A DNA stretch of 64,000 nucleotides from Laetmonice hystrix. Lineage: Eukaryota. The notes beneath the pieces were generated by a model. That model was not told the DNA's origin, did no database searches, and saw only the letters and a program-made list of their open reading frames with translations. Numbering within the stretch: position 1 is the stretch's first letter; each line of letters opens with the position of its first letter. The translations under genes were made by a program, and so were the position numbers. The DNA is taken from the NCBI GenBank assembly GCA_965235115.1, contig OZ249436.1:35776001-35840000 (forward strand), read 5' to 3'. Below, in pieces: positions 1-47,614 of the stretch.

Positions 1-3000
1 GGCTGTTGAACCAAATGAAAAGCCTGATGTTTCACTGGGTGGGAAGTCCCAGTTACCAAACTGCACATCAAGCTGGAATGAACTGATGTGGCCAGGCATT
101 TCGACTGCTGATGCTGGAATCTAAATAGCACATCCTAATTAGTTTATAGCAATGTCTAGGATTATTGTTCTTTTACAACAAGAGGTACAGGTACCTCACA
201 CAGAAGACCTGCCAACAACCAGTACTGTGTCAATTTTAAATACTGTGATAGTGTTTCATTTACAAATTGAATAGAATGGAACCCTGCTCTGCCCTAAATC
301 AATGGGTCCCGGACCAAAGTCAATGGGTCCCCAAAAAATATTAGTGCCCCCTCCAAAGAAAAAATATGCATCTGATTTGAACTTAGATGCATCCTATTTT
401 ATGAGAACAAGGGATACAGGATTCAACAGGTAAAATAATCACTACTGACACTGTGATACACATGTAGATAAATCTAAAAGCACACTGCCCTATACAAAGA
501 TACACATCAAAAATTCAAGTCGATTCTACAAATTTAAAGGATATGTTGTAGCAGACCATATGAACATCTGGCAAGGTCACATATGCTTTGTTTCAAAGGT
601 AACATAAGAACACCTTTAGAAAGGGGTTTCAAATATATAATTATCTCACAATAGACACGATTACTGACTTCTGTAATCATCTTTCATTCACCTTTAATAA
701 ACATATACAGGCTTTCCTTCAGGCCTGTTTTGGTTGTTTTTTTGTTTTTGTTTTTTTTTGGGGGGGGGTTCACCCCAATAAGCAGTTACTCCCCTCAAAA
801 CTTTTCTGGCTTTATTTATTTATTTTCAAAAAAGCCCTCTCTGACATCCAGAAGGTAAACACTTTCTCTATAGTAAATGACAAATACTTCAGACACATGT
901 ACCAATTTAAGGGGTCCGGAGTGGCGCAGTGGTTAGAATGCAGAATCTTTGATCCAAAGATTTTTAGTTCCAGTCATGGCCTCGCTGGACTTTACGCATA
1001 GCAGTGCTGCCGACTGCTTTACCAAAGGCCGGCCCTGTCGCAATACATCTATGTGGAGGGGCAAGTTAAAGATCCCTTGGAATCTATCAAAAATCACACG
1101 ATGGATTTCACCGACTGAGTTAGTCACTTTGTTCTCGCCCTGATATAGCTGAAATACTGTTGACTGGACGTTAACACCAACTACTCACTCACTTCACACA
1201 TTATAATAATCATAATCATACCTTTGAAGGGGGTGGAAGTTTCGAACGTTGCGGCTTTGGTCTCTGCGACAATGCCTGCTGTTGTGGGTGCTGTTGCTGT
1301 TGTGGCTGCTGTTGTGCAACTTGTTGAGCTGTTGGCTGCTGCTGTGGCTGAGGTGGTGGCTGCATCTGCTGCTGTGTCTGTTGAGGCTGGGCCTGCGATG
1401 TCACTGCCTGCCTCACTTGCTGGTTCACCACGGACGAAGATTGATGTGACGAAGTTGGCGTTCCAATCTATGTGAAAGAATGCCAGAGAACTACATTAAA
1501 AACCACACTTTGTTTTTTTATTCAACCTTGCAGGAGAGATTCAGAAACCTATTACCTAACCAAGACTTGCGAAAGTACTGCACTGTTTCAGACATATATG
1601 GACACATTTGAAAACTAGCACAAAAACACCATCAAGACACACATCCACCTCCAATGCACAACCTTCTTCAGCCCTTTCCCCACAGTACAGCTTATTGGCC
1701 ATATAATGGAGTTAAAAACTTGTCCCGTACAAGATTAGTAAATCAACAAAAGAATGGCGGGGGGCCATGGGCTAGTGGGCATTAGGCAGCAGTTGGGGAG
1801 TAACACCCCACTTACCCCCATTGCACTCTTGATGGATTCAGTCGCCTCTTGGGAGTACTGGTTCATATACTGTGACTGTTGCGGACTTTGTGAGTTCACC
1901 TTCAAACAGCAATAAAAATGGTCCTCAATGTTTCTTTGTGGGACAGGGCTTCTGCCAGGGGACAATATCGGGTTTGGAGTGAAGAGAAATCCTTTATATG
2001 ATCACACCCACTAAAGGAGAGGGCCCCACCATCTACCGTGTTCACGACACTGGTAGGGTTTTGTTCCCACAACAGCAAACCTGCTCCATTTATGATCACC
2101 TCCCAGAATTACTGCACTTTTTTTTATGAAACAGTTTAAAATCATGATTCCACCACTACTTCTGGATGTACTGAAAAAAAAAGAAGCAGAAATGGAGAAT
2201 CATAAAATATCAGCCTCCTTTCATTGTTCAGCTGGGTTACTACATCTAGGCTTGGCTCTACAGGTGAAAATTCGATTCCACACTTCTACTTTCTCCAAAA
2301 CAACCACCAGTTAAAATCAACTTTAAAGTAGAATTTTGTTCTTCCATGATTCGTCATCGGGTAACACTGGAATACATTACAATGAATTTGATTACAAATT
2401 ATTTTTTGGAATATTTCTTTTGAAATGCACTTTCAGTCAATTCAGATGATATTCTGTACTGCCTAAAGTTCAAATCAGTTGATCAAAAAGCAACCATTTC
2501 CCCCCTTCCTTTGAGACAGCACTACCGGTACTCAGAAGAAGTGTGTGTCGAGCACTCCATCATAAACATCAAGTCTAGAACTCCTGGACCACTGTATTCA
2601 CTGTAGGCATGATGTGATTAAAAAGTGCCATCGCCACCATGCAGTGTTGGCAGGTTTCTTCCACACAGTGGGGGGAAAATGTAGACTATAGACGAACCCA
2701 AAAGAAACAATGCCAAGTATTATAAAGATTTCAATCCAGAAATTAAACATCCCTTACTATCTCCATACACATGTGCTATAAGTCTATATAACACACCGAC
2801 TTAGTTAAGTGCACAATTGAAGTACCCAGAATAACAGGTTAAAACTTGTACAGCTCCCAGCAATAACTAGGAATTGGATGAAAAATACATACATGTAGCT
2901 GTAAAATGTACCCTATGAGCTCAACTGACTTTAGACCTTAGCTCCCAGATTGAGTCGTTTAAAGATAAATGGTATCAGATTAGAGCCAAAGTAACTTCAG

Positions 3001-6000
3001 GATAAAGGAACGAATGTGGCTCTATAAGAATGATTTTTGATATCAATTGTTGAAATGTGTTCTGAAATCACTCAGCCATATATCTGAAAATTAGGGAGTT
3101 TCTTTCCTGTATTTTAGATTCCAAATATGGGGCAGAATTGGTCTAAACCAGAACCATGGCCATTTTCATCCATTAAGATATCTTACGGACCAGATTTTGT
3201 TTCAAGTGTACGGGTACCACATACCAGTAATCTGCAGTAATTCTAAGTTCCGGGAGGAAGCTGGAGTCTCAAGTGAGAATGGTTAAAAAAAACGAATATG
3301 TCAAAGGACTAGTGAAATCCAAGGAGGTCATGTCACTAGATCTGTTTACTACTAAGAAGATGGAAGAAACCACAAAAGAATGAAAATATCCTCACATCTT
3401 TTGAGGTAAATCCAAGTTTCCGACTGTTTCATAAAGAAATGTACAAATTCACACACGAACTATACTTACTGTCAACTTACTATCAGATGGTTTCTGGATC
3501 TTGCAGTTAATATTCTACTTACCCCCATCATGTTCTTAATAGATTCCGTAGCCTCCTTTGAGAACTGGCTCATGAACTGATGAGACTGTTGCTGACTTGG
3601 TGTCCCAACCTGCAACAGAGGCCACTACAACTTACAATTGGTACATTTACTTTTACCTGCTCAGGGTTTTCTGCTTAAGTATTTTTAAACCCGACTCCAA
3701 ATTTAAAAGCCAACTTTAATTTCAGCTCTCAGTAGTTCATCCATTTTCTTTCCTTCCTTTTCTGGCACTAAAAGGGGCTAACACAAACAGGAACCCTGTT
3801 GGTAAAGACAATTGGCCGTATGCAAGAACATTTAGTATATAGTAAATTACCGTACAAAAATCCCAAGAATGGCTTAACCTATCTCCCTAGATTTACCGTT
3901 GGGTAAGTTTGGTCATGTTTAATTGAATTATATTCTGCTTGGCCAGTGAAATAAAGGCCAGTTTCCAAAATGGAGAACGTTAGAAAATTCTACTTTCTGG
4001 CAACTAGGAACAGGTGTAACTGTAAATCCACGAATTGGGTTAATCTCGAGACTTAACTCTTGTATACAGCCAGTGTTTATACTGCCTAGTCTAAACCAAC
4101 CGACCTCTTACTTCATTCTACATGTATTTACGACAGAGTATCAAAACTGATGAGAATGTTTTTCAGCTGACAGGGCAACACTTGAAACATGCCACTAAAT
4201 AACCGTTTGAACAGGCTGCTCTCACATCTGGCCACTGTCTCAATGTCCCTACCAAAAAGGTGCCGACCACAATCTGTGGATCATAACAAAAAATTGTTCA
4301 CCACCTCACCATACCATCGCACATCTTTATAGTACAAGATACAAATGTCTGTCCTAAAGTAAAGCTCTACAACAAGATACTTCCTTTGGTGTTCCTATAA
4401 ACTATATGCCTACACCTCCGTCTCAATAACAAGCTCCAACTCCACCCCCAACTTTTCAAAGATAAACGACATCAGGACATTACCATACGAGACATGAAAA
4501 CATGTCAATGAGCATCTTTCGTCATGATGTCACCAATCAACTGTTATTGACTATTATAGCGCAGTTTATCAACATACCATTAAGGTCACTGGGGTTAACG
4601 TGATGAGGCCTAAATAATAATAATTAAATAACACCAACAAGTACTGATAAAATGCATAACACGTTCAGGGGTCGAAAAATGAAGTAGTCCTATGCCTGGG
4701 ACTACCAGTATATTTTTCTGGGTTGGACTACCCTCCCCAATAGCCAAGCAAATGCATTAAAGTTAGTCCGACGGATGTGCCCTTTTTATGCCACTAAGTG
4801 CCAATGAAATTTTCAAATATGACGAATGTTATTAACTTTGAGACTTCACAAGCAGTCACAATCTACATGTATTTTCCTTCATTTCTTTCAGCGAGCTATG
4901 AAATATTGAATTTGTAGCCTGCATGGTAATGCAGGACCAAAGATAATGATGCCAGGAAGACAGCATTGTGTGTTTTTGATGTTTTTCAAATCAGGGCTGC
5001 AGGCCTCAAATTAAAAGTTAGAAGGCTTAGGGGCACGGCAAAAATTACTGTCGAGGACCTTGTTAAAAGGAGGCACCACAGCATTTTCAACAAGTTTGGA
5101 AGGGCACCGTGGCAAATTTACTTCTCCAAGGAGGGGCACCAAGGCATTAACAATTTGAAGAAATTTTACCAATAGATCTGAAAATGTGAATGTCGATGTC
5201 TTTGAAAGTGTTCCTCAAGAATATCTAGAGGAATCTAACAAGGTTGAATATAGAATATCTAAACTTTGTTAAGGTTTTAGAAAATGGGGTTATTAAGATT
5301 GTTAGAAAGTGGGATGTCACCTGGCCTGCGTCCAGAGAAGGGCACATGGGAGCAAGGGGAAAGGGCATCACGGCACTGGACTGCCGTTGATGAGGCAAAA
5401 CATAGGAGGGCACCACGGCAATTGCCGTCGGAGCCGTCGTGTAATTCAAGGCATGTGGCTGTATTTTTGAGTGGCCCTTACCACCAAGCTGTGGGATAGC
5501 CCAAGTAATGTATGTAAATCCAACGTATGTGGACTAGCTGCTCAAATTAATGGACTAGTACAACTTAACACAACATTAGCCAGGACTAATGGCCAAAGTT
5601 GGATTTTTCGACCCCTGATGAATTCAATGTTTACTTACTCCCATGGCATTCTTGATGGATTCGGTTGCCTGCTTGGAGAACTGGCTCATGAATTGAGATT
5701 GTTGCTGGTTTGAAGGTTGTTGCGTGTCTGAAGTTGGCTTTTGTAAGAGCATTCCAAGATCCAATCTTAAAATAACACCATAAAACAAATAATTATCCCC
5801 AATTCAAAACATTTAATGCTAGATCTAAGGGAAAATCAGTTGGTGCTAAAAATTGTAGTAATGCTGTTATAGATTAACGAACAGTACTAACGTCCACCAG
5901 ATCATCAAGGAACTCACAAGAAAGTATGTTTCTGAGAATTATGAGAGAAAGCGTAAAATATAGGCCTGTTTTCATAAAATTTCATACTAGCATTACTTTC

Positions 6001-9000
6001 AATACCGAATCGTAAATTAATACGACTTTATCATAGTGGTTGGCAGGTCTGCTAGATACTGCATGATGGGACGAGGTTTTTACTTCTTTCTTGCTCTTGC
6101 TTTTTGGATCACAAATGTATTGAAAAACACTTCTCCTCACCTCTGGCCTAAAGGATGGGAGCTTTGTCCAATACTGCTGTTCTGTCCCATGGAGCTTTGT
6201 GTTATGGAGGTTTGCCCGATCGAGTTCTGGCCGATGGAATTTTGTAAGGTATTAGTTGTATCACTGAGGGCTGGCTGATTTGAATTATCCAAGGAAATAC
6301 TTGAAGAGAAGACCTGGCTCTCCACGGTCAACGAAGGTGTGCTGAACATCTTGGCGTCATTGTCGCCAACTGCACTACTGAATCCTTTTGGTGCTGTGTC
6401 TGCAGCATTACTTGCTGTGAACACTTTTGTTTCCTCAAGCTGTAATCAAAACAAGAACATGCCCTCTAACGAAAATGGGTAAACGATTAACTACGGGATG
6501 ATCCACACAGTACCAGTATCCTTACTACATACACATAATGCAGACAAGAACCAACAATAAGCATGCCATAATAATTAACTTGCAATCCTCAGTACTGGGT
6601 CAGCCATCGCCTCCAGCATGGACTTCACCACACTTTTATCAAAGAACTTAAAAGAAGAAATCAGCTTTATCAAAGTGTATGAAAACTTTACATTTTATTA
6701 TGCACAATTCATAAATAAAACACTAACTTCAACAGGAAATTTACAACATACAATTACTATTAAATACATCAATACACCAACAAAGACAGTCTTAAAACAT
6801 GGATCAGGAATCATCTGACCAGTGAAGTCAACTTGTAACATTTTACAGTTAACAGTGTTACTTTGCAATCCAGTAATTTGGGACATTTATTGTGGGGGAA
6901 AAGATCATTTTTTTTGCCCTTAACTAAACGGAGTAGGGGCTTTTAAACTGCCCTCCGTCAGTACATCAGGGTTGGACAAATCCACTAGCCCAAGGTCCGG
7001 GACCTGCCTATTATTGCTTCGGACTTGTGAAAATATATCAGTGGTAGTCCGACGGACTCTTGCCCAGTCTTGGTTAAACCTACTGTCACTGACAGGGGGT
7101 ATCTGTCAGCACCTGGTGCCAGGCATATAGCAGGTCACAAACCTCCATCCTCCAAGGATACTGGAGGTCTGTGGCCTGTAATGGCAATGATGATGGCAAT
7201 CTTAACATTTCCATAAACTCTCCATGGAATTGTGTCGTTTTGGACCTGTGGACCCAAGAGCAGGACCAGTAAATATTCCGAGTTACTGGTCCTGGACCAG
7301 TGACTCATGAAATAATTTGTCCAACCCTTTACATGTATGGACAGCAATTTCAGAGACAGGTATATGTCAGTTAAATTAACTTGACACAATGACCAGGGAT
7401 GGTTTGAGAATGATGCACACATCTAATCGATTTTTTATCTAGTTCTCAATGGCTGCTTGGGAGCCATGTTGTTTTGTCAGAAAAAATATGCAGCACGGAA
7501 ACTTCTAAAAATTGTTAATTGCGGCCACAGGTAACATCACCTCAGAATGTTCAGTCTCAAGAGTGTGTAAATATGCAATTCACTTTCATTCAGTATGCAG
7601 CAAAAATCTCAAATATCTTCAGTATGTACACAAAACAACTATACATGTACTGTGAACCCACTTGCAGGGGTTTCAGGAAGATATGCCGATTGCAAGGACG
7701 TGTTTAGTTTTGGGGTTGACCTGCTCTCAGGGTTAACTTAGTTAAGCCGATTGCAAGAATGTCACAATTCTCAGGGTTAAGCCATTCTGGAGGTTAAAAC
7801 TAACCCCGGTCTTCTAGTAGGTCTAACCCTGTTAAACTGGCTGATGCATCAAATTGGCCAGGTGTTGTCGCCGAAGGAAGCAGTTTGAAAGAATTGACAA
7901 TGGGTTAAACCAACCTGTGGTTTAACCCATTCTTGAGGTTAACCACTACTAATGTCCTTGCAATCGGCCATTGAGATTACGATCTTAAAGGAACTATGTC
8001 AGCTTGGTTGAGCATTATGGAAAGCCAGTTTGGCTGGGTTTCATGCCTACCATGTCAAATTTACACACCTTCTGTCACTAGCAGAGTACTTATTAGGTTT
8101 AATATATAGGTTTTGTAAACAGACAGCAACTAAATGCACGGTCACCCTCACATTCTACATTTCTGGTTGGGATCGAAAGCAAGGCTGTGGCCATGCTGCT
8201 TCTTCATGGAACCATAGTGCACACTGCATAGGCGCACAACGATATAGTTCCCCGACGAAACCGTCAATTTTTTCACATCTTCAAGCAAATAGCTTTACAA
8301 AAGTACATCGCTGCTTAATTCATCATAAAAATCTGTCAAGAAAAGTGTTTTGTTTAATCTAGAGAACTCTGGCCAAAAATCTTTCTCAAAGGCAGGAGAC
8401 ATAAATTCCACTTGCCCGGCTTTGACATCGACATGCCCTCTATACTTGTTATTAAGTCTATGTTAGGTCAGAGCATTAGCCATCGGGCTATTATCTTTGG
8501 TCTGTTGGACTTGCCTGACCATGCAATCAACTTGCCCTGGGCGTCGGGCATTAGGAATCGGCCATCACTGGACATGTCCAGGAAAAGACCAGGCCTTGTC
8601 CTTTGAAATTAAAAGCAAATAATTACTTGCCTAAACTTCAATTTGAACCTCGAGGTGAGCATTTTTTCTGACAACCTGTGGGCAGTTTTAACACTTGCCA
8701 ATAGGTCAACCAATAAGGTTCATTGTTGTAAGCCAGAATGGCTTTGACTTTGAGGTGGGTGGGTATTTGGGGTTTTATGCCTTGCAACAGCCAGGGTCAT
8801 ATCATGGCGGTGAAGATGATGATGAAAGTCAGTTTTTCTTGGTGGAGGAAACCGGAGTACCCGGAGGAAACCACCGACCATCGGGAAGGAACTGACTGAC
8901 AAACCTTTCACACATGCAGCCCAGGCCGGGGATCGAACCCGGATCGCAGCGGTGTGAGGCGATGGTCCTAGGCGTCATGAGCCAACACCTTAGACCATTC

Positions 9001-12000
9001 GGCCACCCGACATTGAGGTACCACCGTACGCGTCAATTAGTTTCCGATTATAACCCTGAATTGCACAAGCCAAGAATCAGCCCTACCTAGGCACCTAGCA
9101 CAAGTCGTTAAGAAAATTGAACAGACAGGTCTCAGCTTGAGGAACTAAGGCCAGAGGAAGTCAGCTAGGTGCGCATATCTTTAACTAATCTTATAGGTAG
9201 GCGTACAGTATTTTGCGTGCCTTGGCGCAATTTTAGGCATGCTATGGCCCAATTATTGATACACTTTTGAATTTGAAACAATGTTTTTGCCAATTTGTCC
9301 AATGTATAAGAAATAGTTCAGAGATGTGCCCACGCCGGGCGGCACCTGGCACAGATTTCAGCCGCCCAGCACAAAACTAAAAAGGCACATCATTTGAAAA
9401 ATATAGCACCCCTTGCCAACTGAAAACCTTGCGGCTTTGTTGCTAGTGCAAGCAGCAAAATAACCTGTTTCGCATCGCAAATTGCTATACAACTGATGCA
9501 TTTTGCTAATCATTTTCCAAAAATGTTCAGTATAATTTTGTACTATCTGCGAATCAAGCTTTATTTTGCTAGTCAAATTTTTTGGATTATTTTGTGCCTT
9601 GTAGTGCAAAACTACCGCCCGGCACTCAATTTTTTCTGGGCACATCCCTCTAGTTGACACGATTCCTTTAATGTAGATCTTATTTATGGTAACGATATTT
9701 GTATCTTTGTGTTATTGTGGTAGAGACTTTGTTGTTGCCACATGATCTACTTCCAGTTTTAGAATTGGAGGTCTCTGAGACATCCCTACTGCCACAAATC
9801 AGACCTCATTGAGATACCGATTTGTCTTTAAACCCTCATGACTGGTATGTAACATATTTGTGGCTTAGTTCTTTAGAATCTGTGGACTGTGAAAAGATAC
9901 ATTATAACACATTTCTATCAAACTTACTACAGGTACTATTCACATACCTTCAATTATAAATGTCCTAACTTTAAAACATTTTGTATTATTAACGGGTTAC
10001 CCTTGAATTAAAAATAAAATTAAAGAACTGTTACGTACAGATCCTGTCCATTCATCTGCTGTCCAATCCTCCGTCATCTCGCCCCATGAAGTATTTTCTT
10101 TCTCAGCATTTTCAGCTGTCTCATTGGTCCAGGTGTCAATCTGAGGGCCTTTATCGTATCGGTTGCTTCTGTAACTGCGGCCTCCTCGACCACGACCACG
10201 CCCTGAACCATTCATCTGACCTGCATTTACATACACAGGGTCTGAATCATAGCCGTCCACAGCGTGACCCCGAGCTACACCGTTCATCCAACCTGTGCGC
10301 ATTCACAAGAAAAACATACGAAAAACTAAAATGATAAACTTGGCAATATAAGCAGTTTAGGTTGTTGGGGATCACTTTGAAGCAGCTTCCTCTGCCCCAT
10401 TCTGCAATCAATAATAATAAGCCAATATATTTCTAACTCAAATTTGAATTGGGAAATATATTTTTCAGAAAAATTAAAATTTCTTGATCACAAATTAAAT
10501 GATACTGTTTTCCATGCAACAGAGCTAGCTGCACAATATATAAAAGCATTGGTCCCACACTCAACACAATGAACAACATTCTGTGATATTTATTTCATTA
10601 TAAGGGCTTCAAAATTTTATCAAACAAAACAAAGTCCAGAATTTCGTCAGTCAGCAGTTTAAATAAGTTGGTATATATTGGTGTGCAATTTGTCTGAATT
10701 ATGTACAGACTGCCCATTTATGGTAACATGTATACTTCCTATATGGCTACGAATCATATGGCAGTATACAGAATATACACAACATAAACATGTAGCTAAA
10801 GTCAGGAATCCATGTAGTAGTGTTGGCGTGATGTGTAATGCTTAGTGCGTATTGACTGTTTCCATGTACTGCGTATTGATGTGTGCATGATATAACCAAG
10901 TCTAGACTCAGTGAGTCGGGGGTAGATTTCATGTCCGGCAAAAAATGTGGGAGTCCACTATTCCCTAGTGGATCCCCTAGTTACCATTTACATATTTTCA
11001 CTATCATGGCTGTAGCTGCCGGGGGAACTGTCACAAACAGAAAAGCTCTGCTGAGCGTCCAACTATTTGTAGTTCAGAACATCGATTTTGGTCTCAAAAT
11101 CAAGACCCAGTGACATTCAGGATCTCGCCACACAGGCAGTGAGTGTTTGCCGGACAAAATGACTGACGTAACTGCAACAAATGTCTGACAATGTCGACAA
11201 TGTTGCATGAATGTCCGCCGTATTACAGAAACACTGGTATCAGTTCACCGAGACTAGCCGTCGGTTAGAAACTGGGTTAGAAACTGCATCAATATGTGTG
11301 TAAATATCTGGGAGACAGCCGGACTCATGGACAGGTGGCTACCAGATTTTTTTGAGTCTTGGACTCACAGACTCCTGTCGAAATCGACCCCTGAAGTTCA
11401 TAGCCAGGGCTTTCGCTGACATTTACAGAGGTGGGGGTTTATCTTTTTTTCTGGAGAAAAATTGCACTACAAACTGTGAAAAAGTATGTTAAAGAATATG
11501 ATTATAGATCAGTGTGTGAAACTACAGGGAAAAAGAGCAGTCAGAAGGATCACAGCATATTGAAGCTACTGGTCCTTCGGGGCTGTCCATAAATTATGTA
11601 ACCAGATTTTCCCAGTATTCGTCTGGATATCTGGACTTTTTGAGGCTTATAGAACCACTTTTATCATATTTGAAGAGACTTTCTCTTTTAAATCATTAGA
11701 GGCAAGGAGTTCTGATGATTACACAATATGCACTTTAAAGAGTAAATTTGAATAATAAAGTTCTGTTGTTTCCACACTACGTACACATGGATTCCTGGCT
11801 TTACCCTCTGAACGCGACTGCTTCTATAGATTACATCAGAGATTTAGGGTTACCCCATTTACTTTGCAGTATCATGTCATTTCCCTTGATCTGCATCCTA
11901 AATTTTAAAATTCAAGACAAGTATTCAGGGCTCTCAAAAGTAGCCGGTCACTGGCGGCAAAACGCCGTCTAAAACCAGTTTTGCCGCCGCCTACTTTTTG

Positions 12001-15000
12001 TTGAATGACAAAATTTTTTTTTTAAATGTTCTTTTTTCATTTTCCTGCAGGTAGGATCCGCATGTACCCCAAAACATCATGTCAGCGATGACCAATTGCC
12101 CCTCACAGATGCCAGGAAATTGCATCTCAGGGGGCATTTTTTCATGGGGAGGCCCCCCCCCCGAGGGCTGCACCCTGTTACTTTCTCTTCTGTACCCTGC
12201 TATTCCTGCCAACTTTGAGAGCCCTGAGTATTTATTTATATAAAGTAGCAAATACCCTTTTGACGAATATTTTAGCAAGTCTCACCTCTTCCTCGCCCCC
12301 TTCCTCTCTCATAACTTCGCTCTCGGCTCTCTCCATCATCATCTCCTCCCCGACTTCTCTGCGCATTGCGTTCATTCTCTTCTCTCTCACGGTTTTTACC
12401 TGTAATGACATGAGACATTAACCTTTTTTTTTAGTGAACTTGTCTTCAATACTCACATTGGCAAACTATTTGGCAGTAGTATCAGTGTTCTCCACAGGAT
12501 GAAATGTCACACCAGCGGTGAGCCGGGGGTCTGGGGGCCTGTGGGGGTCCAGATCCTGACAGCCTGGATTCCTATGTTTTTTTGGGGGGTAACAAATTAA
12601 ATCTAAGGACACTTTAAATGGACAATTTAACTGTGTTACTGCTTAAAAATTGTACTTTTCACTTAGCCTATACAGGGGTGGAAATTAGGGGAAATTACCT
12701 ACTAGCCAGCAGGGCTAGTTAAGTAGAAATTTAACTAGCCCTGCTGTAAATGAACTATCCAGCAGGGCGAGTTCAGGTGAAGGGTTACTCGCCCTCCACG
12801 TGACCACTGCCCAGCCATTCAACCCACAGAAATCTGTACAGTTGAAGGTGCTACCTTGTGGCTTTAGAAGGTCTGGAATTGGGCAACTGGGGAACTTAGA
12901 ACCTACTGAACATGCTAAATTCTCTGCCCGGTAGTATCATGACGACTGCCATTGTGGGGGCAGGCGATTGCAGGAAAAAAATCACTCGCCCATTAATTTT
13001 AGACAAATCGCCAGCAGGGCGACCTGAATGGTCAGACAAGGTCGCCCAACAGAGGTTTAACTTGCCACGGGCGAGCGGGCGAGCGTTAATTTCCACCCCT
13101 GCCTATACAATATTATGGGTCCACCACAAAGGGTACACCCAACAGATCCACATCTGAGGCATGGATGCTCGGTGAAAATGCACACTGGCGGTCCCTGGGT
13201 GCTCAGTACACCGGCGGGAGACAAAAGTACACCGGAGGGCCACCTGTGTACTTTGTATGTGTGGAGAACACTGAGCATGTACAGAGCAGAGGCAATAACA
13301 TATAAACTGCATACATGTGCAAACACGATATAATTGCAAGATGGGTCAAAAAATATAGTTTGAATTTCAGTTAGAAACAGGTTACAAAGGAGTTAATATT
13401 TTCTTTAATACCATCAGACAACTGAAACTTTATTGCAAGTTCAATTAAAACAAGTGAGGATAAAATGATTTTCTTACGAGCAAGTCTAGGAGGTTGTCTA
13501 CCGCGCCTATCCCGGTCTCTTGGTGGTCCACTGTCACGTGCAACATACTCATCCCTATCACGACTCTTTTCACGTCCATCATTGTGACTATTTGACAAGC
13601 CATCAGCTGATTTTGGTACAGGTGGCTGGCTCTTCCCTTTTCGTCTTTTTCCCGTTGCTTGCCATTCTCCCTTATGTGGAAAAAAATGATATTCTTAAAA
13701 ATTCATTAGCCAAATTTTATTTCTCTTGCCATAAATGCATACCTGCCAACATTTGGTCGACGGAATCCGTAATCATCCCAAATTGACTTTTGATATTCTC
13801 TCTAAATAACTTATATGGGCCCCCTTTCTTTTATCCATCTCTCTCTCCTCTCCATTACTGACAGAAAGCACAACTCTGATTTACTAAACTTAGTCTAGAG
13901 ATCTAGTTATATGGCAGGGACCATAAACGATCTTTTTGCCAGTGAAACTCTGCCATGAGCGAAAAATTTAACATGTTTAGAGAGTAATGCAGAATGCGGA
14001 ATACCTCATTCAAATGCGGAAAGATTCCGCAGGGTTGGCAGGTATGTAAATTGTAAAATTTGTGCCTCTATCATTTTAGCCTTCGGCCCCATGGTTGGAA
14101 TCATCAATACTGCAATAAAAATTCTCTGCATGGGAAATTCTTTCGAAACAGTATCTGGCTGAACTTACCTGGTCATCCTCTCCTTCAAGTAGCATATTAA
14201 TGGCGCGAGTAGGATCATGGTCACAATCATGTAGTGCCACAATTGCAACATCTGCATCACGGCCAGTCAATTCCATCACCTACAACATGTCAATTAACTT
14301 GAGTTAAAAAAACAGCAGGGGTGGAAATTGGGGGAAATCACCTACTAGCCAGCAGGGCTAGTTAAGTAGAAATTTAACTAGCCCTGCTGTAAATGAACTA
14401 GCCAGCAGGGCGAGTTCAGCTGAAGGGTTACTCGCCCTCCACGTGACCACTGCCCGGCCATTCAACCCACAGATATCTGTACAGTCGAAGGTGATGCCTT
14501 GATGGCGCTAGAACTAGTAGAAGGTCTGGAATTGGGCAACTGGGGAACTTAGAACCTACTGAACATTCTAACTCTGCCCGGTTGTATCATGATAACTGCC
14601 ATTGTGGGGGCAGGTGATTGCAGGAAAAAATTCACTTTCCCAATAATTTTAGACAAATCGCCAGCAGGGCGACCTGAATGGTCAGACAAGGTCGCCCAAC
14701 AGAGGTTTAACTCGCCACGGGCGAGCGTTAATTTCCACCCCTGAAACAGGATTTTGGACTTGTCTTCCAGAGTCAGTCATCAGTGTTCATCACAGATTCG
14801 GATTCCAGAGAGCTAGGGCCCATCGTCCATGCAAAGTCCAGGAGGACACAAACCATGTTTTATTGAATTTCTGGTCTACTGCATATTATTCAACACACAT
14901 AATTCATAAAACAGTAAGGAGATTTTCAATCACATTATAGGAAAAGTTATGAGATTTTTGTTGATAAATACGGGAGAATATAGCTGCCCAGTCTGATCCC

Positions 15001-16244
15001 TGATTTGAAGACCTCCGAGGCAATGTCAGCCTTAAAATTTGTGAGTGTACAAAATTAAAATATATATTGCCAGGTCCCTCGCTGGCTTTCAAAACTGATT
15101 AGCCAATAACCTAGCCAAACACTTTGTTTTTATCCAAAATTCAGCAAATTCTATATGTACAATTTGCAAGAAAATTCATCAATATGGATTTTTCCTAGCC
15201 AATTTGTGGAATTAATAGCCATTGGCAACCTGACGACCCAGTAGCTTGGGCCCTGTATTGCTATTTTAGAACATGATAAATGTCACTGCCCCCCCCTCCC
15301 CACCCCGACATGAAGTTTCATGAAAGACTTCACTGCCCTGCTGCTGAAAAGCATTTGGAGTGATGCAACAAAACCACATAGACTCTTTGTTATGATAGTA
15401 CATGTAGTTGATTAACTAGCAATGGTCAACAACAAATGGCACCTGCTGAAACAAGGTAAAGGGTGGTTAAATGTGGCAAATAGACAAGATACAACTAAAC
15501 TATGTTACTTCGCCACAAAAAAATGCCCATGTATACTGAGCTATATTACAGCTCTTAATATCTTTGCTTAGACTGCATGAGTCCTTGGACTTTACTCAGA
15601 CCTCGAAGAACATGCACTAAAGCTAGATAAGTGAGCAAAATTGTAACGCACCTGCTTGACCTTAGCCTGCAGAACTGGATCCTCTATGTCATTTTTGTCT
15701 GCAATCATTTGGGCCAAACGCATCTGTTCTGGTGTGGGCTGCACAAAAAAATGATAAACCATAATATTATAATTGCCTCCAGATAAATAGATCTGTACAC
15801 AAAACAAAACAAACAGTACTGTGCACGCTTTATTTTTAAAATTTACCCCTTTAACAAGAATTCCCTCAATGCCTTAAATTTCTACATTACAGTAGAATAT
15901 ATCTACATATCTATTAATTATGATCATCCATTTCATACTCTATTATAGAACGTCTATGTCGGAACAATTCTTTAAAACCTGACAAGTCACAACTTATTTC
16001 GACATCATTTTCTTTCATTTCAATTTTTAAGGCAATTTGCCATTATTTGGGTTACAAAGATCCAGTCTGGTTTTAATCATAGTAGAGTCTATTATGTTCA
16101 TCTTAAACTGAATTTTAAAATCACACAAGGACTTACCTGATTTTTGGGTGGTCCTTCTGATTTAACATTCTGTGTCTGTTGTGTTTTAACTGTTTTGTCT
16201 TTACTAGATCTACTAGCACGCGAGGTGCCGGCTGAGCTCATCAT
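1..16244 (-). CDS. UBAP2: Ubiquitin-associated protein 2-like / lingerer ortholog (3'-truncated at window edge)
   Basis: Coding exons with GT-AG boundaries and consistent phases: 16137-16244, 15652-15738, 14169-14279, 13478-13670, 12286-12399, 10039-10292, 6141-6439, 5639-5765, 3523-3609, 1816-1899, 1222-1467, <1-120. The translation has family hallmarks: QPTPEQMRLAQMI; UBA-like VMELTGRDADVAIVALHDCDHDPTRAINMLLEG..GEW; RG/RGG tracts; EDW..EWTGSLEETKVFTAS; a Q-rich linker; and the DUF3697 motif PPPSKIPASAVEMPG..LDVQFG. The first coding exon's acceptor lies just above 16287, so a non-coding exon lies further upstream. Confidence 0.93.
911..1197 (+). mobile_element. tRNA-derived SINE with Deu/Nin-type core
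   Basis: A-box TGGCGCAGTGG at 922-932, degenerate B-box AGTTCCAGTC near 966, core GTTAAAGATCCCTTGG, 3' tail GATATAGCTGAAATACTG..CGTTAACACCAA and an (ACTC)n end. A related copy lies in reverse orientation at 45227-45477. Confidence 0.8.
4468..4531 (-). ncRNA. Candidate intronic box C/D snoRNA
   Basis: The minus strand (sense to the UBAP2 host) reads GACATC-ATGACGA(C-box variant)...TTGA(D'?)...CTGA(D box)-TGTC, with complementary termini. No rRNA target was identified. Confidence 0.25.
4666..5617. mobile_element. Non-autonomous TIR element (CAGGGG ends) containing a nested element
   Basis: TIRs CAGGGGTCGAAAAAT / ATTTTTCGACCCCTG. No clear TSD. Confidence 0.7.
5000..5455. mobile_element. Nested non-autonomous TIR element, same family as 44025-44182
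   Basis: Ends CAGGCCTCAAATTA / TAATTCAAGGCATG, flanks GGGCTG/TGGCTG (5/6 match). The subterminal GCCGTCGTGTAATT is shared, in the opposite orientation, with the 44025 copy. Confidence 0.7.
6967..7329. mobile_element. Non-autonomous TIR element (hAT-like MITE)
   Basis: Ends CAGGGTTGGACAAAT / ATTTGTCCAACCCT(t), 5-bp direct flanks TACAT. Confidence 0.7.
7685..7968. mobile_element. MITE, PIF/Harbinger-like
   Basis: TIRs GCCGATTGCAAGGAC / GTCCTTGCAATCGGC, an internal repeat of GCCGATTGCAAG and many GGTTAA motifs. Confidence 0.7.
8757..9008 (-). mobile_element. tRNA-derived SINE with V-domain core (V-SINE type)
   Basis: Minus strand: A-box TGGCCGAATGG (8995-9005), B-box GGTTCGATCCC (8929-8939), V-core GGTTTCCTCCGGGTACTCCGGTTTCCTCCACC (8841-8872), (ACCC)n tail. 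Flanked by an 11-bp near-identical TSD GACTTTGAGGT/GACATTGAGGT. Confidence 0.85.
9319..9650. mobile_element. Non-autonomous TIR element
   Basis: Ends CAGAGATGTGCCC / GGGCACATCCCT(c), 5-bp direct flanks TAGTT. Confidence 0.65.
10918..11393. mobile_element. Degenerate non-autonomous TIR element related to 4666-5617
   Basis: Ends CGGGGGTAGATTTC / GAAATCGACCCCTG. Confidence 0.5.
11926..12226. mobile_element. Non-autonomous TIR element (hAT-like MITE)
   Basis: TIRs CAGGGCTCTCAAA / TTTGAGAGCCCTG, perfect 6-bp TSD AGTATT. Confidence 0.8.
12673..13101. mobile_element. ~430-bp non-autonomous TIR element, copy 1
   Basis: TIRs CAGGGGTGGAAATT / AATTTCCACCCCTG, 6-bp TSD CCTATA. Highly similar over its full length to 14316-14743. 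Confidence 0.9.
13738..14046. mobile_element. Non-autonomous TIR element (hAT-like)
   Basis: TIRs CATACCTGCCAAC / GTTGGCAGGTATG, flanks TAAATG/TAAATT. Confidence 0.7.
14316..14743. mobile_element. ~430-bp non-autonomous TIR element, copy 2
   Basis: Same TIRs and body as 12673-13101 but a different 6-bp TSD (AAACAG), indicating an independent insertion. Confidence 0.9.
15071..15255. mobile_element. Non-autonomous TIR element
   Basis: Ends CAGGTCCC / GGGCCCTG, 6-bp TSD TATTGC. A related partial copy lies at ~40221-40395 (CAGGGCCCTCGCTGGCTTTCAAAACTGATT...). Confidence 0.75.
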
Positions 16245-25707: not shown

Positions 25708-28155
25708 ATGGCATTCACAGCACGGATGATGAGTTCTGGCAAGCTGGCGGCTGCTACCCTGGTGGGGGCAGGCGCAGTTGCTGCCGGAATTTACGCTAAT
25801 CACAACAGGCAGAGTGCTCGCAACTGGCAGTCAAGTGCACATATGAAGTACCCGGCAAGCTGCAACTACCCGGATCTCTCCAGCCACAACAATGTTATGG
25901 CTGAGTGTCTTACCCCTGATGTAAGTTAATCAGTAGAACATCATCTGGCCAATGTTCGTTGTAATTTTTGTACCGATTACTAAGTAACTTAAATCCTTTT
26001 AGAATAAAGAATGTGTCTCAGGATTCCCATACTTGTACCAAAAAATTCAGGTCGGGAAAGAACCCTGTAAATGTCGAAGTTAAGTTATAAGAACGCTATC
26101 AGGTAAAGGTCAAATTCTTAACGGTATCTTGGAATTGGATGTGAACCAACATCTGCTTGATCAGGCTCACTTGTGCACATAGTTTAGCTATACTGGTAAG
26201 TCGTAGATTTTCTAATGCTAAATATATCTAATGGGAGTGTTCTAAATTACTGTTGAAAGCCATCAGATTAAGAATTAAGGCAAACCTAAATAAAAAGATA
26301 GGTGTATTCAGTCATGTATGCAGAGAAAAGTACAGTAAATGTTCTTTCTTCTTCACCCCTCCAGATGTACATTCATCTGCGTGATAAGGTGACACCAAAT
26401 GGATGCACACTGGACAATTGTATCCAGACAGGAGTTGACAACCCAGGTCATCCCTTCATTAAAACTGTTGGCTGTGTGGCCGGGGATGAGGAAAGCTATG
26501 AGGTATGTATGGGTCCATGGTTTCAGCAACCCCAGGATAAAAACAAAATATGGTAGTTTTAGACACCAGTATTGAACAGGGAAGTGTATGTTACCATCAC
26601 TTATCTTTGTGCAAACCCAGTGCTTTCCCTAACCTGGTTCAGATATTGCCATTCTCTGATTCTGGAGCTAAATCTAGGAGGAAATTGTATTCAATATTGG
26701 TAATGTTCCCTAGACGATTGTGTCCTTGGAAGTCTTGACAATGAAAGTATCGGGTCACTGTTATAATGGGTCAGTGCTTGGCATGTTATCCCAGCACATC
26801 AAATAGTCTTAATTGATTATTCCAGGAACCAAAGTTCTTGTCCTTGCAGTTTTGTCATTCAGATAATAAGAAAAAAGTTCCCTCTCAACTTGATATCCTG
26901 GTACTTGACAAGCCGCATGGGAACTATATCCCGTCATATACCATGATAAGAGATATCAAAGATAAATTTGCTCCTGTTCTCAGGTGTTTGCTGAGTTCTT
27001 TGACAAGGTAATCGACATCCGCATGGGTGGATACAAGCCATGGGACAAGCACACCACTGACCTGGATTTCACCAAAGTCAAGGGCGGAGACTTTGATTCT
27101 AAATATGTTCTATCATCTCGGGTTCGTACCGGGCGTTGCATCCGAGGTCTCACTCTGCCCCCTATCTGCTCCCGTGCTGAGCGCCGTGAAGTGGAACGCG
27201 TTGTAACTGATGCCCTGGGTAACCTGAAAGGGCCACTCCAGGGCAAGTACTACCCTCTGGCCAAGATGACAGACGCCGAGCAGGAACAGCTCATCAATGA
27301 CCACTTCCTTTTCGACAAGCCCGTTTCTCCTCTTCTCCTTGCCTCTGGTATGGCACGTGACTGGCCTGATGCACGTGGCATTTGGTACGTTTTAGATTTG
27401 GGAATTTCAAATAAACACACTGCAATTCAAGCGCAAGATCTGTAAACTATGCTAACTTATGCCTAGTTCCTTTTCAAAAAAAGGAAAGAAAAAATTGTCA
27501 CCATTATAATTTTCCATGGCTCAATTACTACACATGAAATGCTGATTTAAATTACACTGGACGAATGCCTGAATTTTAATTAAGTGAAAAAATATATGCT
27601 AATTTTTTGTCTTAAAATAAAATCATAGTAAGCTCATTTGCTGATGCAACGTGATTTTTCAGGCACAACGATGCCAAAAACTTCCTAGTGTGGGTGAACG
27701 AGGAGGACCACACTCGTGTCATTTCCATGGAGCAAGGAGGCAACATGAAGCGGGTTTTCCAACGTTTCTGTCAAGGCCTGCAAGAGGTGGAGAAGAACAT
27801 CCGTGCACGTGGCTGGGAGTTCATGTGGAACGAGCACCTCGGCTACGTTCTGACCTGTCCAAGCAACCTCGGTACTGGTCTCCGTGCCGGTGTCCACGTC
27901 AAACTCCCCCTTCTCTCTCAAGACCCCCGCTTTGGTGCTGTTCTCAAAACCATGCGCCTGCAGAAACGGGGCACAGGCGGCGTCGACACTGAGGCAACCG
28001 GAGGAGTGTTTGATATCTCTAACGCAGACCGTTTGGGCAAGTCTGAGGTCCAGCTGGTTCAGGGCGTCATTGACGGAGTAAACCTCCTTATTGAAATGGA
28101 AAAAAGGCTAGAAAAGAGGCAGCGCATTGATGATCTTGTGGCACGTGCCAAGTAA
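25708..28155 (+). CDS. CKMT: Mitochondrial creatine kinase (MtCK), 414 aa, 4 coding exons
   Basis: Exons 25708-25920, 26365-26502, 26984-27384 and 27663-28155 total 1245 nt, all GT-AG. CK-specific motifs: [33 protein letters not shown]. The N-terminal basic-plus-hydrophobic presequence ([29 protein letters not shown]), the RGWEFMWN octamer-type Trp and a basic C-terminus indicate the mitochondrial isoform. An acceptor at 25645 implies an upstream non-coding exon; AATAAA at 28776. Confidence 0.95.
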
Positions 28156-34400: not shown

Positions 34401-37400
34401 ACAGCTCATTATCTGGATCAAAGTCTAATGGAGTTGGAGGACGTTTTGGTGACTGCCAGAACAGAGCTGAAGAACAAAACAGAAATAGATGACATCCACG
34501 TATACATGAGGCTTTCTCTTGTTCAGAAGCTATGCCAGCAAGGAAAATGACTTACATCCATCCTTGAGCTGAGTGTTGAGAGGAAAGGCATGTAGCAGAT
34601 GTCGTGCCTTGTGGTTGAAATACTTTTCAAACTTGGTTCGGGCGTGGATGACACACATGTGCCAGGTACCTGGTCGACCATAGGCCAGCTTACTGACCTG
34701 TACAGCTCCTTCCATCGACTGACCACTACCCAGCCTCTGTCAAACACAAATCCTAATTGATATCACAGTTTTAATATCAGAATCTGACTTGCTTTCTTGG
34801 TAAACATTTTAAATCGGAGATCCTACTTTTGTTTTTGCAGCATTTATCCAGAAACGAAGTCCACATAGCAATATAATATCCCACAGCTCAGAGCTTGATG
34901 TTGCTATTTTCAAAAGGGGCTTTCTTGTGACCTACTTGAGCTTACTAAAAAAGGGTGGTCACAGCTATAAATCAGGCACTTTGATCTGAGCATGAACAAA
35001 AGCTTACTTCCTTGATAATCCTGACTACTCAAGTAAATCAACACATTACTAGTAACAACACACTGAATGCCTTCAAACAGACTAGACTAACATCTACTGG
35101 GACTGCACAAATCCTCTGGTGAGGAGTCCTAGTACATCACCTACCTCTACAGCCTCTTGTGGCGAGGATAAGGACAACCAAAACTTGTTATATAATGCAG
35201 GTTTCTGAGCAAAGGCGCTTTCAAACTTGTCCCTGGCCCACTGTATGCAGTGTTCAATGGTAGCAGGGAAGGACTTTAGAGTGCAGTAGGGGACATCTTC
35301 ATCGTGAGGATCTGACTGACTTGTGTAGGATTCCGTCAGATGTGGTACGATGATTTGAACATGACCTTTGGCTCCCATGGTGCCCGATTCTAACAGGGGA
35401 CGCTGATTGGTCACACACCGACTGCATACATAACCAAGGCAGATTTTTACATACAAGGAATAATACAAAGTTACAGAATAAACAAAAAAATAAAGCAAGC
35501 TCTATATATGTATGATTTCGATCTAGATCTTTTATATGAGAGAAATTGTTCAGGAATCAGCATGCAGAGGAGTGCTACACTTTTGGTTTTAGTTCAGTTA
35601 CCGGCACTTCCATTATTAAACTAGTCATTTCTTGAATTCATTTGCCCCTTTGTTTCCAATATATTTAAATGGTGTCAACTCAAATCCTGTTACAACCGAC
35701 CTGTCCATGTAGCGACGGGCTTCAACATTGTCCAAAGCATTAATAACAATTTGCTGGGCACAGAAGAAATCATCTGTATATACTGTACTCTCCGTCTGAG
35801 GGCAAACTACAAGAAGAACCATAACAACAAATTAACAATGCCTTGATTCACTCGTGGATAAAACAATAAAGCTTTGTTCCACCTCTTAGATGAACAGTAA
35901 AAAGGAAGGTTACCAATCAAGCATTCAAAGTACTGATGAGCCTCTGAAGAGACTGCCATTTATCCAAAAATCAAGACACAGTAAGCAATAGGTATACATG
36001 TATCTCATGATGCATACCTTTGTGTTGCTGAGCATCTATATAGAGAGCTGCAAAATTGAAAAAAAAGAACAACGGGTAAATACATGTAGTTGACCATGCC
36101 CAACCCTTTTTGGCTTACTTGTATATCACACAAATCAATTAACACAAGGGAAGAATAATGTATTGAATACATTATTTTACAATGTTGATATTTTTTTAAT
36201 TTGACACCATTTACCCTAAAACATGTTCCATTCTACCAAATCACATGGAATCGTGATTCAAGTGATTCATATAATTATCTGTCCACATCTGATATGACTC
36301 TGCAATTGGTAAAGTGTTATCCTTATTGCATTTATTTTTTAGGTTAATTAAACATATTTTGATCAATTTTGGAACCAAGCACTGAATTCACCGGGAATCA
36401 TGAGAGTAAAATTCCATCAATTGAACAAAAATCACCAGCTTCAAACCATCATCATCTTATTATCTCAATACCTACCCGGATTAATTTCCTTTGCTGATGA
36501 AGCAGCTGTTGTACTCTTTGGGTGCTGGAAAGAATCATCATCATAGCATTAAGCAGTCATACTTGCAAATGTTAATAATCTGACTTTGCCACTCATTTTT
36601 ATATGTTTTTCTTGGGTGGGTTTAGCCAGTTGGCCACAGTCATCAACAAAACTCTCTCTCAAGTTAAAGAACCGTTTTCAAAGGATTAAAACTCTCTTCC
36701 AAAAACGCTACACTCCCAACAATCTTGCCATAAAAAGACAAAGACTTTTTGCTGTTGCTTCATTCCTGTACTCTTGGGTAAAGTTGAAAATAGCCCTTTC
36801 ATGGTAAAAACTTGATAGATAGAGTACCTACTCTTATATGATGAGGTCGGAAAAGGAACTGTCTGTTCAAATTCGACTTCTCTATTAGGTCATTATCTGT
36901 AATTGTAATCTGCAAACAAAGACAAGATCAAAAACATTACTGATCACAGGAAAAGAGTTTTCAACTTAAGACATGGAGTACAATGCTGTTCATCACATAC
37001 TTCTACGTCAATCAGTGAAAGCAAGTACAAACATAACGAACCTGGCCATTGCTGGCTCTCCCTGCACCCAGAAGGGCATAGTTCTTCAGCATCTCACATC
37101 CTATAGCTCCACAACCAACCTAGAATATCAATCAAAACACACAGAACATGTGAATACACAACTAGCAAGAGCAATTCGATTCAAAACTACCTGAAACTAA
37201 ATAGCTCAATATAGAGTCATGTTATGTCCTTTTCTGTCTTTCTCTTTTTAGCATAAATAAGACTGCCATGATACAACATCATTCTCACCATAAACAATCT
37301 AAGATCTGCCAATTTCCTACAAAGGTCCTCGCCAACACATATTCTTAATGCATCGTATCTGTTGCCACTATAAAGAAAGGGGACAGTAAGGTTAACACAG

Positions 37401-46943: not shown

Positions 46944-47466
46944 CGAAATTATGTCTGGGCCAGCTTTAAATAATCAGTAATCTTCTTAGTGGTGTTTTCA
47001 CATCCAGTCTGTCATTGATCCCACCACTGAACTACCCGGATAAATGAAAACTGGCAGAACCGGCACTTTTGACATTTGTCAGGGCAGACACTGAGACTGA
47101 GTGAGACAGTGGTGGCATCTTGAAGTTGGCCAATGTTGACATTTTGACAGATCAGACGTTACTGCACATGCGTGTCACTGATCATTCTATATGCATAACA
47201 TATGTGCTCTGGATTCTAAGATAAGCACTTAAAACTTAGGCTTTTCTACGTCTCGCTATATTTCACATAAAGTAATTTTACCGGCAATTTTGACATTCCC
47301 TTCTTCCGATATCACCCTCGCAGCTACGGCAAACGATGTCGAAACATGTGTAGCCTCCAAATGGCAGCGCAAATCCTATTGGACGTTGCATATATGTGAA
47401 CCAATGAGATCACGTGTAATAAAAGGTGAGGCAGACATTCGTGACGTCACACTCCCCACTTCCACA
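46944..47466. promoter_or_regulatory. Bidirectional promoter region, UBA6 (-) / MAP1-futsch (+)
   Basis: Head-to-head genes. Candidate UBA6 non-coding exon 1 ends at 46944 (CG|GTAACT donor). ATTGG/CCAAT pair at ~47378/47401, CACGTG at ~47412 and GTGACGTCAC CRE at 47441-47450, just upstream of the futsch ATG. Confidence 0.55.
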
Positions 47467-47614
47467 ATGGCGACGGGAGATGCGAACGGTGGTTCTGGTC
47501 TGGGAGAAAATACTTCTGATATGGCAGAATTAACTGGATCCGCTGTGCTCGTTGTCATTGGAGAACCTTTGACGGCCGATCACAAGGAGCTGATTTTGGA
47601 ACGGATAACTAAAG
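47467..47614 (+). CDS. futsch: Microtubule-associated protein futsch / MAP1 family, first coding exon (gene continues beyond the window)
   Basis: Good Kozak context ACAATGG. Encodes MATGDANGGSGLGENTSDMAELTGSAVLVVIGEPLTADHKELILERITKG and ends at an AAAG|GTGAGC donor. It resembles the futsch/MAP1 N-terminal motif LTG..LL.V.GEP....HK..IL.R..KG. No exon 2 (expected F.SWD) was found up to 64000. Confidence 0.8.

Follow-up and report, generated by a model that had tools for sequence, protein, structure and literature searches.

A motif usually present once in lingerer/UBAP2 ends three consecutive exons of the gene in Laetmonice hystrix

Why would three consecutive exons of one gene end in the same peptide, and how many copies of that peptide does the protein carry? 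The question is raised by the window analysed here, a 64,000-nucleotide (nt) stretch of the Laetmonice hystrix genome (GCA_965235115.1, contig OZ249436.1, forward-strand positions 35,776,001 to 35,840,000), within which all coordinates below are numbered. Its minus strand (-) carries a gene of the lingerer/UBAP2 family in which exons A (5639..5765, 127 nt), B (3523..3609, 87 nt), and C (1816..1899, 84 nt) all end in one 19-residue motif at phase-0 GTAAGT donors, with AG acceptors throughout. A first-pass annotation of the sequence had proposed these exons with their translations and shared ends, as well as the symmetry of B and C (both phase 0/0), and all of this was borne out. The motif copies occupy 5639-5695, 3523-3579, and 1816-1872. 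Over the last 69 nt, A and B share 50 identical positions, A and C share 53, and B and C share 44, and the three exon ends were detected without prior input as one repeat family of 73 nt. The first profile of the family scored copies A, B, and C at 41.8, 38.3, and 38.0 bits, respectively.

The array is confined to these exons and is present in contigs of public sequencing runs. When the genome (627 Mb in 35 contigs) was searched with the exon B peptide, at least three matches were obtained, and those listed were A, B, and C only. A profile scan in all six frames, covering the window and a further 20 kb past it, found no fourth copy above 0 bits. The head of exon D, the next exon downstream, had been hinted at by DNA alignment as a degenerate fourth copy, and we rejected it on its negative profile score. 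DNA-like contigs from all three public runs, which derive from one sample, span exons A, B, and C, so the array is not an assembly artefact. Among the 40 variants listed out of 117 in those contigs, exons A and B were free of any, and a single one (1890) alters a linker residue of exon C.

To place the array in evolutionary context, we quantified the motif across homologues. A profile built from the three copies retrieved only lingerer proteins among assignable matches, and follow-up searches returned 41 proteins, 32 proteins, and the best 120 of 374. Copies were then counted with a profile that excluded those of the window, in 155 homologous proteins of at least 700 residues (isoforms and cluster members included), taking 12 bits or more as a clear copy. 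By this count, 115 proteins have one copy, a single protein (P0005) has two, and none has three. The remaining 39 fell below 12 bits, comprising 21 with one weak match (5-12 bits) and 18 with none; shuffled proteins gave no match at 5 bits. Metagenomic loci told the same story, as all 19 that were confirmed from 100 pattern matches are single-copy, although several are near-identical to one another. Three copies are therefore not the ancestral state, in agreement with the first-pass annotation. Partial upstream half-copies in Lamellibrachia and P0007-like proteins scored below 5 bits and were not counted. A possible partial helix repeat, likewise below 5 bits, can be seen upstream of the motif within exon A of P0015, P0073, P0083, P0007, P0070, P0077, P0079, and P0085.

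The motif follows the consensus [YF]xxQ[YF]xxxATESIKx(A/S)(I/V)G-IG, with a phase-0 intron before the final IG. Carriers include gastropods, bivalves, Lingula, Owenia, Lamellibrachia, mites, ticks, a scorpion, Limulus, a sea spider, Strigamia, copepods, and hemimetabolous insects. Judged by this distribution, the motif is old, normally single, and conserved in molluscs, annelids, a brachiopod, and arthropods. The motif searches returned no vertebrate, Drosophila, or nematode protein. Polychaetes are thinly sampled, and near relatives may therefore share the three copies. Exon C is the most diverged copy, and at each of its five changed positions it has a residue (Y, N, Y, Q, S) that other family members use in that column. 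All three window copies have Met before the motif Gly, compared with 0 of 105 distinct motif ends elsewhere, which argues for a lineage-specific duplication.

How did the additional exons arise? In 20 of 22 short open reading frames (ORFs), the motif region ends at G followed by an intron-derived Val. Among the 19 related loci, 14 have GT directly after the motif Gly, while the other five are transcript-like and read through in frame, four of them into IG. The next exon was found in three of five genomic loci examined (L013, L014, and L015, with L013 and L015 bivalve-like by sequence), where it starts with IG. Comparison of these loci indicates that the consensus ...(I/V)G-IG is interrupted by an ancestral intron. 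Each copy is consequently completed by the first codons of the following exon. Exon A (phase 2/0) is itself ancestral, as its borders (R-LD... and ...G-GT) are the same in mollusc- and annelid-like genomic ORFs and loci. It has an LDLGxLL head and carries the motif at its tail. In lophotrochozoans the LDL(G)xLL element (5740-5765, -) stands at the start of exon A; arthropods and Ptychodera have counterparts of it, and it lies outside the duplicated unit. The ancestral downstream exon is D (1222..1467, 246 nt, phase 0/0), whose first codons (IG) complete the motif and are followed by a Q-rich linker to PPPSK.

Exon B appears to be a chimera of these two ancestral exons. Its VGTP head resembles the start of exon D: of its first 15 nt, 11 are identical to exon D and only three to the corresponding part of exon A (binomial p about 2e-4), in agreement with the likeness of VGTPS and IGTPT pointed out in the first-pass annotation. 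Because IGTP occurs in just one of the homologous motif ends listed, this match is not mere conservation of the motif. Exon A is in phase 2/0, so copying it whole could not have kept the frame, and its counterpart B was not formed from a whole exon with its own acceptor and donor. In contrast, if the duplication had its breakpoints inside A and D, both the chimeric structure and the 0/0 phase of B follow. The ancestral protostome gene had one amphipathic helix motif split by a phase-0 intron before its last IG. Under the scenario we propose, a tandem duplication then copied the tail of A, the intron, and the head of D to give a new in-frame exon, as the head of B shows and as probably holds for C, and a second round of duplication produced the third copy. 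For exon C, which starts with Val like B, the source was either another duplication across the intron or a copying of B, possibly of the whole exon, given that the first 15 nt of B and C match at nine positions. The order of the two duplications is not fixed, because A and B have ancestral residues in common and synonymous sites have reached saturation. The array resembles known tandemly duplicated exons (excerpts of PMC9013439; all papers cited here were used in excerpt) in that A, B, and C are adjacent homologous coding exons of one gene, with B and C of similar length and equal phase. It differs in that the parent exon was not copied whole and the new exons join the head of D to the tail of A.

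Other rearrangements at the same position were seen among the homologues. P0006, P0069, and P0194 are genomic-looking ORFs in which exon A continues into exon D with no intron between them and the motif ends differently (KNDLRIG), which amounts to intron loss with a changed junction in some lineage. P0081, P0072, and P0075 have an exon A with a degenerate motif end, for which a second copy elsewhere in the gene could have taken over.

Codon divergence pointed to selection on the copies. For the last 19 codons of A/B, A/C, and B/C, the proportions of synonymous differences (pS) were 0.91, 0.66, and 0.85, compared with proportions of nonsynonymous differences (pN) of 0.07, 0.13, and 0.16 (Fisher p at most 0.0014), with pN biased downward because the region was picked for its protein similarity. 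Longer windows gave an agreeing picture, and the choice of region does not produce saturation, intact frames, or intact splice sites. Simulated neutral divergence of the exon A tail attained the weaker extra copy's score in 5 of 2000 runs at 0.3 changes per site, and in none of 2000 at either 0.5 or 0.75. These results uphold the first-pass claim that the peptide was kept by selection as its codons diverged. Synonymous sites near saturation together with low pN imply that the copies are old and under purifying selection. By these measures, exons B and C are real coding exons of long standing. Both duplications are thus old, and retention of all copies by purifying selection is indirect evidence that they are translated.

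A second expansion was found in P0005 and P0067. P0005 (1311 residues) is encoded whole on a 5286-nt contig with both copies in one reading frame, and in P0067 (187 residues) the ORF runs through both copies without an intron. As in the window, the same motif occurs in tandem, and the added unit starts with AG-S, which resembles the IG-S head of the downstream part as the same type of duplication predicts. Unlike the window's three copies with Met, theirs are two copies spaced 31 residues apart, each with Val before Gly. In a quick-search tree of 20 proteins, P0005 grouped with single-copy Lamellibrachia, P0014, and P0027 (the last on a long branch), apart from the window gene, with a Shimodaira-Hasegawa-like approximate likelihood ratio test (SH-aLRT) value of 99. 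Two apparently independent expansions of the motif are the simplest reading.

Apart from the motif array, the gene is an ordinary member of the UBAP2/UBAP2L/Lingerer/PQN-59 family (PF12478). The exon at 1..120, which continues past the window edge, matches PF12478 (UBAP2-Lig, the G3BP-binding FG region) at 35.2 bits relative to a cut-off of 22.2. This is the sole match in the genome, implying a single lingerer/UBAP2 gene. For the N-terminal UBA domain, the family profile matches PDB 1wj7 at E 1.5e-29, and both matches corroborate the family assignment made at first pass. Our model of 12 exons runs from 16244 to the window edge and stays open for 610 residues with all three motif exons included; the 3' exons continue for ~13.5 kb past the window. 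The first three coding exons (16137-16244, 15652-15738, and 14169-14279) include the UBA domain. Exons of the window match homologues at 45-59%, and the 37-residue exon alone gave UBA-type Pfam matches that were all below the cut-off. Two exons of an Arg/Gly/Asp-rich region follow (13478-13670 and 12286-12399), placed by the gene model and comparison with homologues. The nearest named protein is that of Lamellibrachia at 50% identity. Like its relatives, the gene encodes a long disordered tail rich in S, Q, and Y, and it differs from them in having three motif copies.

The exon at 10039..10292 contains RGG repeats and a Trp-rich conserved region ending in the first half of an FMRP-binding-type motif, and the exon at 6141..6439 supplies the second half (L..K-V-F) and a S/G/Q-rich linker. 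The resulting sequence pattern across the 10039/6439 junction, W-x3-L-x3-K-(I/V)-F, has the same spacing as the FMRP-binding residues W249, L253, K257, I258, and F259 of human UBAP2L (PMC10897489). In the FG region, the window gene has one FG and a second Phe without a following Gly, as opposed to the double FG motif that binds G3BP/Rasputin (PMC3708825). Human and fly orthologues act in stress-granule scaffolding (PMC7205891, PMC11248227, PMC3708825). Just before exon A, at 6141-6260 (-), are imperfect five-residue S/I/G/Q repeats, and similar repeats occur in P0005, P0014, and, inside exon A, P0004.

The motif sits between the FMRP-binding-type motif and the FG region and is distinct from both. 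In each of the three copies, the hydrophobic moment is greatest at 95 degrees (0.49, 0.49, and 0.37). In an AlphaFold2 model of the Lingula orthologue, built from 35 sequences, the motif forms a helix at residues 306-323 with a block mean predicted local distance difference test (pLDDT) score of 69, compared with a protein mean of 39. This is one of just two helices in the model, the other being an N-terminal remnant. Both lines of evidence agree with the earlier suggestion of a helical motif. None of the 35 aligned sequences departs from the motif's Ala, Glu, Lys, and Gly, and the model depicts a conserved amphipathic-helix island within a disordered region, as in helical short linear motifs. 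From this conservation and shape, we infer that the motif is probably a helix that folds upon binding a partner protein. Pfam holds no family for the motif peptides, a PDB sequence search with the motif profile gave no meaningful match (best E 0.065), and ESM Atlas matches (best score 0.85) were uninformative, with recognition below the useful range.

Published accounts offer little on this segment. Domain lists for human UBAP2L place a UBA at 49-89, RGG at 131-190, further regions at 239-257 and 282-290, a domain whose function is unknown (DUF) at 495-526, and a region at 850-864 (PMC9250975, PMC7205891, PMC13513674); in the excerpted lists, nothing is named between residues 290 and 495 (same sources and PMC11248227). 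Our literature search returned no paper on the motif or its duplication, although the motif may lie within a conserved region drawn in the original lingerer paper.

The helical leucine-rich motifs of fungal Dcp2 are an example of multivalent helical motifs in the scaffold of a ribonucleoprotein (RNP) granule. The window's array is like them in that short amphipathic helices recur within a disordered region, where several copies of one partner could be bound. Unlike in Dcp2, the copy number here is built from separate exons, and we claim no sequence relationship between the two.

Whether the three copies reach one protein depends on the splicing of B and C. We ranked splice sites with a matrix of the gene's own 21 acceptors and 22 donors, a small training set. 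The sites of B and C are within the range of the gene's other sites: the acceptor of C ranks 2nd of 21 and that of B 17th, and both donors are mid-range among 22. Neither these ranks nor RNA folding of this gene gave a positive sign of exon skipping. On balance, we favor the reading that exons B and C are constantly included, with the three copies giving avidity. The main product would then carry three helices, 29 and 28 residues apart, in a disordered linker between the FMRP- and G3BP-binding sites. Each helix may fold on docking to the same folded partner with its hydrophobic face down, specificity may be determined by the conserved Gln, Ala, Glu, Lys, and Gly, and three copies would raise avidity or valency in the RNP-granule network.

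A real, if unlikely, possibility is that B and C are regulated cassette exons, with tissue- or stress-specific skipping setting one, two, or three helices. Both exons can be skipped in frame, and because exon D starts with IG, skipping B and C restores the consensus G-IG junction. However, their 0/0 symmetry is an automatic by-product of copying one phase-0 intron and is thus no evidence of skipping. The low rank of B's acceptor would suit regulated use, whereas C's acceptor and both donors would not. Similarly, of the 22 donors folded, that of exon C takes the most energy to open (11.9 kcal/mol), yet the constitutive-type donor at 6141 scores 11.7, and a G/C-rich hairpin over the C donor (1790-1822, -) was no better than shuffles (z -0.42 and +0.68). 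Five splice isoforms of human UBAP2L (PMC9250975) speak for regulation in the family, but the strong purifying selection on B and C suggests regular use.

Further alternatives fared worse. It is improbable that the helices work by self-association, bundling within or between molecules, instead of by docking to another protein. Being amphipathic, with one flank of small residues, and arrayed in tandem with short Gln/Pro linkers, they could form such a bundle, but the best-conserved columns include Gln, Glu, Lys, and the Gly-Ile-Gly tail, as would be expected of docking on a folded surface more than of a coiled coil. A two-copy fold of the exon A peptide, made without an alignment, scored 0.01 relative to a mark of 0.32, too low to weigh either way.

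Mutually exclusive use of B and C, by which the protein would always have two helices with the second swapped for a variant of different affinity, we regard as quite improbable. Homologous tandem exons of 87 and 84 nt in the same phase are the usual pattern of such pairs (PMC9013439), C is the most diverged copy, and splicing A-B-D would leave the consensus (I/V)G after both copies. Against this, the 1623-nt phase-0 intron between B and C (1900..3522) is too long for steric exclusion, joint inclusion keeps the frame, and any inclusion of C gives the preceding copy VN. No docker/selector pairing beyond chance was found. One candidate, which pairs the intron after B with the intron before D and loops out C, was equaled by 0 of 20 plain shuffles, but 4 of 200 dinucleotide shuffles equaled it, as did 5 of 52 other intron windows. 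Because it was also one of six tests, we rejected it. That B and C are decaying or never-used duplicates is highly improbable, for although their expression in this species rests on sequence inference, their synonymous sites are close to saturation while frames, splice sites, and motif scores are intact, and neutral simulations almost never keep the motif.

Several observations weigh against constant inclusion of a binding array and its proposed origin, in addition to the bias in pN. Joint inclusion of B and C in one mRNA of this species is read from the genomic sequence, and binding and its partner are read from conservation and shape. The AlphaFold model is of an orthologue and has low overall confidence. 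In beetles, moths, springtails, and the hemichordate Ptychodera (the only one seen), the C-terminal half of the motif is degenerate or absent, so it is not essential in all animals. The first 15 nt of exon C match exon D at only six positions, and the copy that precedes exon C receives VN rather than the consensus (I/V)G. The three introns share no similarity above that of 100 shuffles. Hence, the first-pass proposal that an intron-spanning duplication created chimeric exons stands for exon B and is weaker for exon C.

A broader proposal is distinctly unlikely as a whole: that the motif is a third protostome-wide docking helix of lingerer/UBAP2 besides the FMRP and G3BP sites, that its copy number rose at least twice independently in annelid-like lineages across the splitting intron, and that splicing sets a valency of one to three by tissue or stress. 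What is new here is the description of a helix conserved among protostomes in the lingerer scaffold, its array of three exons, and what appears to be a separate second doubling, exon duplication itself being well known (PMC9013439). Overall, the results describe, with good support, how one gene is built in one lineage. Stress granules have UBAP2L/lingerer as a core node, and valency is considered to control how condensates behave. The triplication draws attention to an apparently unstudied helix that is retained in animals as far apart as mites, centipedes, molluscs, and worms, is better ordered in the model than any other segment outside the UBA domain, and has been multiplied more than once in evolution. 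It offers a 20-residue bait for a partner and a natural series of one, two, and three copies for studying valency. The origin of the exons, by duplication across an intron and automatically in frame, is a clean example of a known process.

The introns of the array also contain repeats. Intron A-B (3610..5638, 2029 nt, phase 0) carries high-copy sequence, as judged from repeat depth. Within it, a perfect 16-nt inverted repeat (4665-4680 and 5603-5618) flanks ~0.95 kb of high-copy sequence and lies 20 nt from the exon A donor; this element looks like a non-autonomous DNA transposon. Intron C-D (1468..1815, 348 nt, phase 0) separates the last motif copy from exon D, and the intron after exon D has a very high-copy repeat at 937-1170, with a summed contig depth above 100,000.

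Elsewhere in the window, an ORF at 47233-47997 (+) has no Pfam match, and its middle presumably resembles the N-terminus of MAP1/Futsch. A ubiquitin-activating E1 enzyme exon with ThiF and SCCH domains lies at 35097-35501 (-), which we take to be UBA6-like. Phosphagen kinase exons were found at 26966-28152 (+), and their best PDB matches are mitochondrial creatine kinases.

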